From the NCBI RefSeq assembly GCF_050920415.1, contig NZ_CP169310.1: 64,000 bases of DNA. One strand, written 5' to 3'. Below the pieces are notes generated by a model. It was not told where the DNA came from, searched no databases, and saw nothing but the letters and a program-made list of their open reading frames with translations. Both the position numbers and the translations under genes were made by a program. Shown here piece after piece: positions 34,914 through 36,697 of this stretch (position 1 is the stretch's first letter; each line of letters starts with the position of its first letter). This DNA is from Escherichia coli (GTDB lineage Bacteria > Pseudomonadota > Gammaproteobacteria > Enterobacterales > Enterobacteriaceae).

Positions 34914-35147
34914 ATGGAGAATGAAGTGATGTCATCTCAACTTCAGAACTGTGTTGATTGTGGTAAAGCATTAAGTCGAACAGCCACAACATGCGGGAAT
35001 TGCAGCTCAACGGACCCTTTTGGAAAAAAACGCCGCAACGATCGCTTGCATCAATGGTTTGCCGGGCTGTTTATTACGGCTACTATTATTGCTGGCGGGC
35101 TATGGTACATGGGAATTCTTGATGTTCCGGGATTATTACTCAGATAA
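34914..35147 (+). CDS. Small zinc-ribbon plus transmembrane protein (about 77 aa), opposite strand
   Basis: MENEVMSSQLQNCVDCGKALSRTATTCGNCSS (two CxxC pairs) followed by one hydrophobic helix; divergent from traN in the traN-trbC gap. Reality of the gene unverified. Confidence 0.3.
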   Translation: MENEVMSSQLQNCVDCGKALSRTATTCGNCSSTDPFGKKRRNDRLHQWFAGLFITATIIAGGLWYMGILDVPGLLLR

Positions 35148-35516
35148 CGATTTCAGTAACGATATCAGTGTCCTGAAATCAGCACATAACGAGTGACGAC
35201 AGTACCGGTTATACCAGTAATAAGGGGCTTCGGGCTGAAGCCTGAAACAGAGCTGAAACTCGCTGTTAAAAGCCCCCTTCACCGACCATCCCCATGCCAG
35301 ACGTGGTATTGCTGATTCAGCATCCTGCCGCAGTCGCCGTTCAAGAAGGGCAGCCATTTTTACCGGACAGACAAAGGCAATATAAGGCGGCAGCTTTGTA
35401 ACAGGAAAACCATGCCCCTGACAGGACGCATATGTACGGAATCCGTGAACGTTCATCGCGGCCACAAGTGCACGGATGTCCGGGTCAATCCGGTAATAGC
35501 CTGCTGGAAAACTCAT
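35136..35516 (-). CDS. Hypothetical protein (126 aa) between trbC and traN
   Basis: ORF co-oriented with the tra operon at a junction that is gene-free in F as far as I recall. Confidence 0.5.
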   Translation of the reverse strand: MSFPAGYYRIDPDIRALVAAMNVHGFRTYASCQGHGFPVTKLPPYIAFVCPVKMAALLERRLRQDAESAIPRLAWGWSVKGAFNSEFQLCFRLQPEAPYYWYNRYCRHSLCADFRTLISLLKSLSE

Positions 35517-36151
35517 TGCGACTTATCCCCGGTGCCGTCCAGCAGTCCCTGAGCCACCTGCCGGCAGTCTCCCGTGGCGGCCACTTTTTCCAGCGCCTGC
35601 CTGACGCGCAGATTTCCCCGGATGATGTCGTGCCCCTGGCTGCAGAACACCACCAGGGCCGGCACGCTGCGGATGCCGTACTGTGAAAACAACGTCGGGT
35701 CGATCTGAACACCATCGGTCGCGCCATCTTTTACCAGAGACAACACGGCTTCAGCGGTAGTCTTCAGGTCATTGTTCACCATGCCCCGCAGTGTGGCCGG
35801 AATACCGTAGTGCCCGGTTTCGCTCAGCATCTGTTTCAGCCCCTCTTCGGGTATGGAAAACGATACAAAATACACGGCCCCCTGTTGTGGTTTGTCTTTC
35901 TGAGCAGCCTGCTGCTTACGGACCAGTTCATCGAGAAACTGGTTATCGGAATGCTGAAGGGGATTCGCCCTGACCTGCTGTTCTGCCCATGCCTGCAGTT
36001 GTGTGTCCGGCTTTTCACGTAACTGCTGACTCAGTGTTTCCTGCTGCTTCAGGAACCGGCGGTTTTCTGGCGTATTCACGTTTTCCGAAGCGTGGGCAGA
36101 AATAAACAGTCCTGCTGTCAGGGAAAAAAGTACAAATATTTTACGGCTCAT
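35513..36151 (-). CDS. trbC: Pilus assembly protein TrbC
   Basis: About 212 aa with signal peptide; position downstream of traU. Confidence 0.9.
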   Translation of the reverse strand: MSRKIFVLFSLTAGLFISAHASENVNTPENRRFLKQQETLSQQLREKPDTQLQAWAEQQVRANPLQHSDNQFLDELVRKQQAAQKDKPQQGAVYFVSFSIPEEGLKQMLSETGHYGIPATLRGMVNNDLKTTAEAVLSLVKDGATDGVQIDPTLFSQYGIRSVPALVVFCSQGHDIIRGNLRVRQALEKVAATGDCRQVAQGLLDGTGDKSQ

Positions 36152-36400
36152 ATCATCTCCCGGCATAGTGATATAATTTAATTACCGGCGCACTTTTCTT
36201 TCAATCTTTCAGACAGAGCATATAACTCATCCATTTCTTCCTGAGTAATGCATTTTCTGCTGACAGTAATCTACACCGTAGCCACGGCGGTATCTCTGTT
36301 CAGAATAATATCATCACCGTAATTTTTTAATGACAGATGGTCTCCCTCTCTCCGGGCCTGGTATATTTTTTTCCGGTGGATACTCAGACAATTCGTTCTC

Positions 36401-36697
36401 CTACCTGTCTTTAGATTTATCATTACAATTATATTCAGACATAGTGCTGATGAATTCCCGAAATCTTCTGTCAATAAACTCCAGTCGATTCAGTATATCC
36501 TCTGATTTCCTGACATCTTCAATATCTGTAAGCCGACGGCACTCCAGCAGAGGATAATATGCCCCACCATTTTCAGTCCATTGTCTGACCACATCAAAAG
36601 CACTCACCTTTTCCAGCAGGGAGAAAAATCGCTCCTCACTGATAAAAATTTCTTTTTCTTTATTACTTATCTTTCGTAAAAATGATAAAAAACTCAT
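36401..36697 (-). CDS. Hypothetical protein (about 98 aa), AT-rich cargo between traU and trbC
   Basis: AT-rich ORF in an approximately 800-bp insert at the traU-trbC junction; a second overlapping small ORF (36271-36474) is less convincing. Confidence 0.4.
   Translation of the reverse strand: MSFLSFLRKISNKEKEIFISEERFFSLLEKVSAFDVVRQWTENGGAYYPLLECRRLTDIEDVRKSEDILNRLEFIDRRFREFISTMSEYNCNDKSKDR

Follow-up and report, generated by a model that had tools for sequence, protein, structure and literature searches.

We analyzed a 64,000-nt stretch of Escherichia coli DNA (contig NZ_CP169310.1 of assembly GCF_050920415.1; hereafter, the window) in which a complete F-type transfer (tra) operon lies on the minus strand. 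In Enterobacteriaceae, resistance and virulence genes are carried mainly by F-like plasmids, whose transfer operon is commonly regarded as an unvarying set of known genes. In the window, the junction between trbC and traN holds two convergent small genes, hereafter referred to as orf126 and orf72, and the junction between traU and trbC holds an AT-rich insert. Both junctions are tight in F (NC_002483), with an 8-nt gap between traU and trbC and a 4-nt overlap of trbC and traN, as a preliminary description of this DNA had stated. The small open reading frames (ORFs) listed there all exist where they were placed, and comparison across F-like plasmids, in which both junctions vary, bears out the view that they hold non-F cargo inside the tra operon. 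The trbC-traN junction contains the following features:

trbC: 35513-36151, minus strand, F-type pilin assembly protein; upstream neighbor of orf126
orf126: 35136-35516, minus strand, intact gene for a soluble 126-aa protein of an unnamed family (WP_000009645)
orf72: 34929-35147, plus strand, 72-aa protein (WP_001364024); RefSeq start at 34929, with GGAG 9 nt upstream
traN: 32997-34901, minus strand, mating-pair stabilization protein; its start lies 234 nt past the orf126 stop

An in-frame ATG is also present at 34914 and gives a plus-strand ORF of 34914-35147. Positions 34700-37100 of the window are 100% identical to five IncFIA/FIB plasmids of ~215-225 kb from E. coli and Escherichia sp. (e.g., NZ_CP012500 and NZ_AP025742), and partial matches to this interval occur in 4305 plasmid records. 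The RefSeq gene order in NZ_AP025742 is traC, trbI, traW, traU, a 98-aa gene, trbC, a 126-aa gene, a 72-aa gene on the opposite strand, traN, trbE and traF, with the 98-aa, 126-aa and 72-aa products each annotated as "hypothetical protein."

The ATG of orf126 overlaps the TGA of trbC (ATGA), as is classic for translationally coupled genes. Neither a hydrophobic segment (maximum Kyte-Doolittle score of 1.19) nor a signal peptide is present in the protein, and it has no match in Pfam, NCBIfam, PADLOC or PHROGs. By tblastn, orf126 occurs in 860 plasmid records, 146 of which are at <60% identity and include Providencia, Vibrio and Aeromonas. Its DNA is found in 439 of 5426 complete E. coli genomes (~8%), and the orf126-orf72 pair in 102. 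In comparisons with three diverged E. coli plasmids, the ratio of nonsynonymous to synonymous polymorphism (pN/pS) is 0.16-0.22 for orf126, compared to 0.16-0.31 for trbC. orf126 is under purifying selection and is a real gene, not a chance ORF.

orf72, which is found in 120-130 plasmid records, is likewise a real gene. It is intact in diverged E. coli plasmids. Read in its own frame, it has a pN/pS of 0.14-0.31; of the other five frames of this DNA, four have values of 0.7-2.7 and one has three stop codons. The predicted protein has a zinc ribbon at its N terminus (C8xDC11...C22xxC25-STDPFG), then a basic stretch and a single membrane helix (approximately residues 46-64). The zinc-ribbon/transmembrane call of the preliminary description is upheld by weak Pfam zinc-ribbon matches, a Kyte-Doolittle score of 1.71 over residues 46-64 and the invariant CxDC...CxxC pattern. 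This layout predicts that orf72 is a small protein of the inner membrane whose zinc ribbon is in the cytoplasm. Homologs with 38-47% identity keep C8-x-D-C11, L15-S16, T18-A19, C22-x-x-C25, S27-T-D-P-F-G32, R35 and L58-W59. In one relative, NZ_CP010214.1 (locus 1501-1719), the third zinc-ribbon Cys is changed (C22Y) in an otherwise intact ORF, which may be an inactive allele.

Homologs of orf126 and orf72 from other genera share 35-54% protein identity with the window copies and, with their invariant motifs, span Enterobacteriaceae, Morganellaceae and Yersiniaceae. With their low pN/pS and distant homologs, orf126 and orf72 are more than chance ORFs. The ORFs of the AT-rich insert are fragments of one broken gene (see below).

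The orf126/orf72 pair and its occurrence on mobile elements

The 3′ ends of orf126 and orf72 overlap convergently by 12 nt in the window. The same convergent arrangement with overlapping 3′ ends, between homologs of 38-54% identity, is found in five independent contexts:

E. coli, trbC-traN: overlap of 12 nt
P. hangzhouensis, trbF-traH: overlap of 86 nt
pENTE01, traH-traG: overlap of 32 nt
Serratia pE36_1, beside a PFL_4706-type conjugative ATPase gene: overlap of 63 nt
K. michiganensis plasmid, beside ArdC-like, N6-methylase, UvrD and MOBH TraI genes: overlap of 60 nt

The preliminary description had placed a possible toxin-antitoxin (TA)-like pair in the AT-rich insert; the conserved pair, orf126 with the plus-strand ORF, is at the other junction and was missed. 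In the contexts examined, orf72 always lies next to an orf126 homolog, while orf126 often occurs without orf72, either alone or with a co-directional HNH endonuclease gene instead, suggesting that orf72 depends on orf126 and not vice versa. A weak sigma-70-like promoter match (TTCAGA-17-TATATT, 34864-34892, plus strand) is located upstream of orf72, inside the 5′ end of traN. As any tra transcript that runs from orf126 into traN is antisense to the whole of orf72, we infer that the two genes are probably expressed reciprocally.

The preliminary description noted that cargo in a transfer operon often encodes exclusion, anti-defense or addiction functions. No PADLOC, PHROGs, NCBIfam or Pfam match supports such a role for any of the small ORFs, the only matches being the weak zinc-ribbon ones of orf72, and an Rfam scan of 34500-37200 returned no match and hence no antitoxin RNA. 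The solubility of orf126 and its lack of a signal peptide argue against an exclusion role. Set beside the inner-membrane or lipoprotein exclusion proteins TraS, TraT and Eex, orf126 has no hydrophobic segment and no family match, and orf72 has one predicted membrane helix and no exclusion-family homology.

An addiction module, in which orf72 would be a membrane toxin kept in check by the orf126 protein or, as in type I systems, by the tra/orf126 transcript acting as antisense RNA, seems to us improbable. The presence of orf72 only beside orf126 homologs, with orf126 often alone, is the pattern of a toxin and its antidote. orf72 is also a small, predicted single-pass membrane protein, so that the membrane helix and antisense overlap of type I TA systems are both present, and the convergent overlap supplies a built-in antisense RNA. 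However, neither protein matches a TA or defense family (NCBIfam, Pfam or PADLOC), type II pairs are co-directional whereas orf126 and orf72 converge, and type I toxins tend to be smaller and have no conserved zinc ribbon with an STDPFG motif. Unlike a dedicated antitoxin, orf126 is independently successful and coupled into transfer operons. Further, orf72 is simply deleted in close relatives (L021 and L022, the latter being pUC4224_1), and its zinc ribbon carries the C22Y change in another. True TA cargo can sit inside tra operons: in P. alcalifaciens NZ_OU659163.1 (locus 3198-3790), a HigB/HigA-type pair is inserted in a tra region that is degenerating, just upstream of an orf126 homolog (35% identity) and a fragmented traH, an arrangement that fits the addiction explanation.

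A profile search of 1.84 billion representative proteins recovered the orf126 family as 527 clusters (E ≤ 1e-3), of which ~15 contexts were examined. In a Foldseek search of AFDB50, the relatives of orf126 (from Enterobacterales, Burkholderia, Acidithiobacillus, Vibrio and others) are all annotated as "uncharacterized protein." Within F-type operons, the family occupies four different junctions:

trbC-traN: the window; the K. grimontii copy overlaps both neighbors
traW-traU: pRHB06-C19_2, overlapping both neighbors
trbF-traH: Providencia; the 134-aa gene upstream encodes a TrbF homolog
traH-traG: Enterobacter sp. 638 pENTE01

Beyond F-type operons, more distantly related members are found in other mobile-element settings. 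One of 263 aa, in a VirB-type operon, is encoded between virB11 and the gene for the coupling protein, virD4, and is followed by a gene for an ArdC-N polyvalent protein. Other members follow topoisomerase III (TopB) or integrase genes in regions resembling integrative and conjugative elements (ICEs), with AcaB, SSB and SNF2 helicase genes, and one is found near a TraI_2 relaxase gene. A 300-aa member overlaps the start of a TnsA-TnsB-TniB-TniQ (Tn7-like) operon (GCA_049340185.1, locus 7001-13347). This Tn7-like operon is followed by SMODS and PLD-domain genes, which may be defense cargo.

The recruited genes are co-oriented with their neighbors, and their start and stop codons usually overlap those of the adjacent genes. 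That the family was recruited repeatedly and independently, and often with translational coupling, points to a selected function tied to DNA mobility. orf126 is not a core tra/trb gene, as it is absent from F, occurs in ~860 of ~4300 region-matching plasmids and sits at four different F-type junctions. Both its variable position and its absence from F speak against its being a structural part of the secretion machinery.

We regard as very unlikely the explanation that orf126 is an accessory part of the conjugative secretion machinery, or a factor in its assembly, with orf72 as its membrane anchor at the type IV secretion system (T4SS). The coupling of orf126 between core T4SS genes in both F-type and VirB-type operons is what such a factor would show, and the predicted inner-membrane location of orf72 would suit an anchor. 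The gene is nevertheless missing from F and most F-like systems and has no fixed operon position, family members are also found beside integrase, SNF2, TopB and Tn7-like genes without an adjacent T4SS gene, and the conserved polar motif of orf126 is enzyme-like.

Comparison of orf126 with TYW3

Among 53 diverse members, the orf126 family signature is [DE]11, L17, V18, N22, T28-x-A30-S31-C32-[QE]-G34-H35, P44-Y45, W77 and D113. H35, within the motif, is the sole conserved His, and the other invariant columns are G34, W77 and D113. With the family alignment as input, the AlphaFold2 model of orf126 is confident (pLDDT 93.7, pTM 0.86).

From sequence alone, the family profile matches PDB 2qg3, a TYW3 structure, at an E value of 0.009. 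The TYW3/Taw3 proteins are tRNA wybutosine (yW) N4-methyltransferases, and their fold consists of an N-terminal extension, an SHS2 domain and a RAGNYA domain, ~190 residues in all. The alignment pairs D11, N22, T28, S31-C32 and G34 of orf126 with an Asp, Asn, Thr, Ser-Cys and Gly of TYW3. Five of the 53 family members have marginal matches to Pfam TYW3 (E ≤ 0.1; best 1.7e-3), and hhalign against an alignment of TYW3 N-terminal fragments gives an E value of 7e-5 over 37 columns, in the same register as the 2qg3 alignment. This profile-profile comparison was built from short TYW3 fragments and thus covers the N-terminal motif only. Position 11, which is Asp in 40/53 members and Glu in 13/53, aligns to the invariant TYW3 Asp with both hmmsearch and hhalign. 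The first Ser of the TYW3 SSCxGR motif is Ala in 45/53 members, with the Thr, Ser, Cys and Gly retained.

The catalytic residues of TYW3 have been defined: the N-terminal Asp (Asp25 in SsTaw3) contacts the sulfonium of S-adenosylmethionine (SAM), the Cys and Arg of the (S/T)xSSCxGR signature are essential, and an invariant His73, where strand 3 of the RAGNYA domain ends, binds the SAM carboxylate (PMC5311493). We conclude that orf126 is a remote, miniaturized relative with a probable TYW3-like fold and not a member of the TYW3 family. SAM binding by orf126 is a reasonable hypothesis. Bacteria are not known to make wybutosine, and wyosine intermediates of tRNA-Phe are therefore not expected as its substrate.

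A TYW3-like, potentially SAM-binding fold would also suit an anti-defense or establishment factor that acts on behalf of incoming DNA in the recipient, whether by DNA modification, by depletion or sequestration of SAM, or by transfer of orf126 itself through the T4SS. Outside F-like plasmids, family members have the kind of neighbors usual in leading or establishment regions (ArdC-like protein, N6-DNA methylase, SSB, TopB, UvrD and the ArdC-N polyvalent protein). In F-like plasmids, however, orf126 lies in the middle of the tra operon and not in the leading region, a position from which it would be expressed in donors and only late in recipients, and it resembles none of the known anti-restriction families in Pfam or PADLOC. 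We consider this explanation unlikely.

Decay and mosaicism at the traU-trbC junction

The features of the traU-trbC junction, with the differences from the intact gene as read from pairwise and four-way DNA alignments with three plasmids that carry it, are as follows:

traU: 36973-37965, minus strand; upstream boundary of the AT-rich insert
traU-trbC gap: 36152-36972, GC content of 0.384, compared to 0.54-0.56 in traU and trbC
42-aa ORF: 36829-36957, minus strand, with a strong Shine-Dalgarno sequence directly after the traU stop
"orf172" pseudogene: 36178-36697, minus strand, a conserved 172-aa hypothetical protein, from alignments with intact 172-173-aa homologs
orf98: 36401-36697, minus strand (WP_001364039), N-terminal fragment of the 172-aa gene
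67-aa ORF: 36271-36474, overlapping orf98, the frame-shifted middle of the 172-aa gene
lesion 1: 36401-36403, TGG to TAG, which creates the "98-aa ORF"
lesion 2: A-run at 36366-36372, one extra A (7 A compared to 6)
lesion 3: 36271-36273, CAG to TAG

orf98 and the 67-aa ORF, which had been proposed to form the TA-like pair, are thus pieces of a single 172-aa gene. All three lesions are specific to the lineage of the window. Homologs of orf98 are mostly 172 aa (e.g., a cluster of 349 members), with truncated 103-, 123- and 164-aa variants. The intact 172-aa protein has no family match, its profile search against PDB came back empty and its AlphaFold2 model is unusable (pLDDT 43). The A-run at 36366-36372 appears to be a recurrent frameshift site (homologs P0056, P0045 and P0071): the 123-aa variant P0056 is present on 142 contigs, and the 172-aa variant P0071 shifts frame and then restores it. 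This variation could be simple decay or slippage-based switching.

In pUC4224_1, this junction has a 59-aa hypothetical gene that is matched by the C-terminal half of the 42-aa ORF (DWQLIAARLRKKINRERS). As the full 42-aa segment is confined to this plasmid clade, the ORF is probably the remnant of another cassette. Relatives carry a hydrophobic ORF of ~102 aa upstream of the 172-aa gene, where the window has the 42-aa ORF. Judged from these alignments, the traU-trbC cargo of this plasmid is dead, with its 172-aa gene inactivated three times, and we suggest that the AT-rich insert be annotated as a pseudogene, not as a 98-aa protein.

Both junctions are hot spots of variation: F-like plasmids show at least five configurations at trbC-traN and at least four at traU-trbC, and the latter junction is a mosaic recombination hot spot. 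The 2.5-kb traU-trbC insert of pUC4224_1 (NZ_CP104473.1) holds a second traU 3′ end (...KNPPDTKKNFGYLMWRKRNCVFL; locus 2152-2358), suggesting that cassettes are stacked by recombination anchored on the end of traU. ORFs of approximately 101-103 aa are found at traU-trbC in several F-like plasmids, including pSLT-like ones (L017 2732-3037, L019 2732-3037, L028 1533-1841, L020 2361-2669 and L002 5204-5515); the pM19B copy (L002) is visibly hydrophobic. Neither the window nor F has this ORF, and it is assigned to no family.

In pM19B-like and pSLT-like plasmids, an HNH-endonuclease cassette fills the orf126-traN or trbC-traN position as an alternative to orf72. Unlike orf72, it is co-directional with tra, 140 aa long and clearly assigned to a family (phrog_2118, 2e-57), and it is absent from the window. 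We rejected the idea that the orf72 spacer is a remnant of this cassette, as the two are unrelated in sequence, with a breakpoint that falls within the final ~45 nt of orf126. An obligate partnership of HNH with orf126 was also rejected, as HNH occurs alone in pSLT-like plasmids and in IncHI2 plasmids without orf126 nearby. Homologs of the 140-aa HNH protein of pM19B (L002 3143-3565) are present in 2706 plasmid records, including IncHI2 plasmids with neither tra genes nor orf126 nearby.

These junctions invite the explanation that all of the small ORFs are neutral, hitch-hiking DNA, that is, recombination scars at hot-spot junctions. It draws on the decaying traU-trbC insert, with three lesions here and truncated variants elsewhere, on the mosaic junctions, the duplicated traU 3′ end of pUC4224_1 and the exchange of HNH for orf72, and on the absence of the module from F and ~80% of F-like plasmids. 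Against it, purifying selection on orf126 and orf72 equals that on trbC, the invariant motifs are kept in homologs of 35-54% identity across three families, and the repeated independent insertions have precise start/stop coupling. As an account of the whole, it is highly improbable: for orf126 and orf72, neutrality fails on the selection evidence, and we accept it, on the alignments, for the traU-trbC insert.

Proposed explanation and comparison with known systems

We propose that the trbC-traN junction holds a functional, horizontally mobile two-gene module. orf126 would be translated with the tra operon through stop/start coupling to trbC and may act as a soluble, cytoplasmic, SAM-binding and possibly methyl-transferring accessory enzyme; it would not be a structural part of the pilus or secretion system. 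Its substrate may be a nucleic acid connected with the processing of mobile-element DNA. orf72 could be a membrane-anchored partner or regulator of orf126, and the two would be expressed reciprocally through antisense tra read-through. The traU-trbC junction holds decaying cargo, with a dead 172-aa gene and the 42-aa remnant. Taken as a whole, this explanation stands, in our judgment, at about even chances, a compromise between its two parts. Its anatomical and evolutionary part is very probably correct, and the proposed biochemical role is tentative and rather doubtful.

Several observations weigh against this explanation. F and most F-like plasmids (~80%) lack the module, so any role in conjugation is dispensable, and most plasmids with orf126 lack orf72 (860 compared to ~125 records). 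The sole promoter-like site for orf72 is weak, and the promoter scan was not significant (2 sites compared to 3.5 expected in shuffles). A Foldseek search of the orf126 model against PDB gave no significant match, with TYW3 outside the top 50, and orf126 itself has no match to Pfam TYW3 (PF02676) even at E ≤ 10. The Arg essential in TYW3 is replaced by His in 52/53 family members, no second invariant His equivalent to TYW3 His73 is present among the conserved family columns, and orf126 is ~126 aa long compared to ~190-200 aa for TYW3.

In a bolder form of the proposal, orf126 and orf72 would be an unrecognized two-component system: a miniaturized TYW3-class ("ninth class") SAM-dependent enzyme repurposed for DNA or RNA modification during transfer or establishment, partnered and reciprocally regulated by a zinc-ribbon membrane protein from a convergent gene. 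We hold this to be a long shot; if true, it would be the first case in bacteria of a TYW3 fold carried and used by a mobile element. Our literature search found no paper that links TYW3 to plasmids or conjugation and none that describes these ORFs; the "Five shades of F" survey queried F genes only.

The module matters in several respects. Some 8% of the complete E. coli genomes have an unnamed gene translationally coupled into the transfer operon, and F-type and VirB-type operons, ICEs and a Tn7-like element have repeatedly recruited members of its family. TYW3 methyltransferases are the sole detectable relatives of orf126 with known function and provide a biochemical lead, namely SAM binding with D11, C32 and H35 as candidate residues, and the conserved opposite-strand partner orf72 offers a second experimental handle. 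The cargo of these junctions is not all alive, as the trbC-traN pair is intact and the traU-trbC insert has decayed.

Among known proteins, the TYW3/Taw3 tRNA-yW N4-methyltransferases (PF02676; PDB 2drv, 2qg3, 1tlj and 2dvk) share with orf126 the N-terminal pattern D-x2-I-x2-L-x3-N...T-x-x-S-C-x-G, and the acidic residue and Cys kept in orf126 are residues essential in TYW3. In contrast, the invariant W77 and D113 are specific to the orf126 family, TYW3 proteins are archaeal and eukaryotic tRNA enzymes whereas the orf126 family is bacterial and found on mobile elements, and the link between them lies below the Pfam threshold and is not recovered by Foldseek.

The artA gene of F, like orf72, is an ORF in the tra region on the anti-tra strand. 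Its counterpart in the window is a 111-aa hydrophobic ORF (31324-31659, plus strand) on the anti-tra strand between traQ and trbA, in AT-rich DNA (GC content of 0.32-0.39), such that the operon contains two genes in the opposite orientation, the artA counterpart and orf72. Unlike orf72, this 111-aa gene lies next to trbA and has no convergent partner such as orf126.

In the type I TA systems hok/sok, srnB and flm of F-like plasmids, an antisense transcript overlaps the mRNA for a small membrane protein, and orf72 resembles them in being a small, predicted membrane protein with an antisense overlap. orf72 differs in being longer (72-80 aa) and in its conserved, predicted cytoplasmic zinc ribbon, and the transcript that overlaps it encodes a conserved, enzyme-like protein. 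TraR of F, like orf126, is a small product of a gene within the tra operon that is expressed together with it, and it acts on the host and is not a structural part of the transfer machinery (PMC9239242). Unlike orf126, TraR is DksA-like, binds RNA polymerase, has a fixed traV-traC position and is present in F, and the two have no relation in sequence or fold. The conserved orf126/orf72 module represents an undescribed family that is common in conjugative elements.

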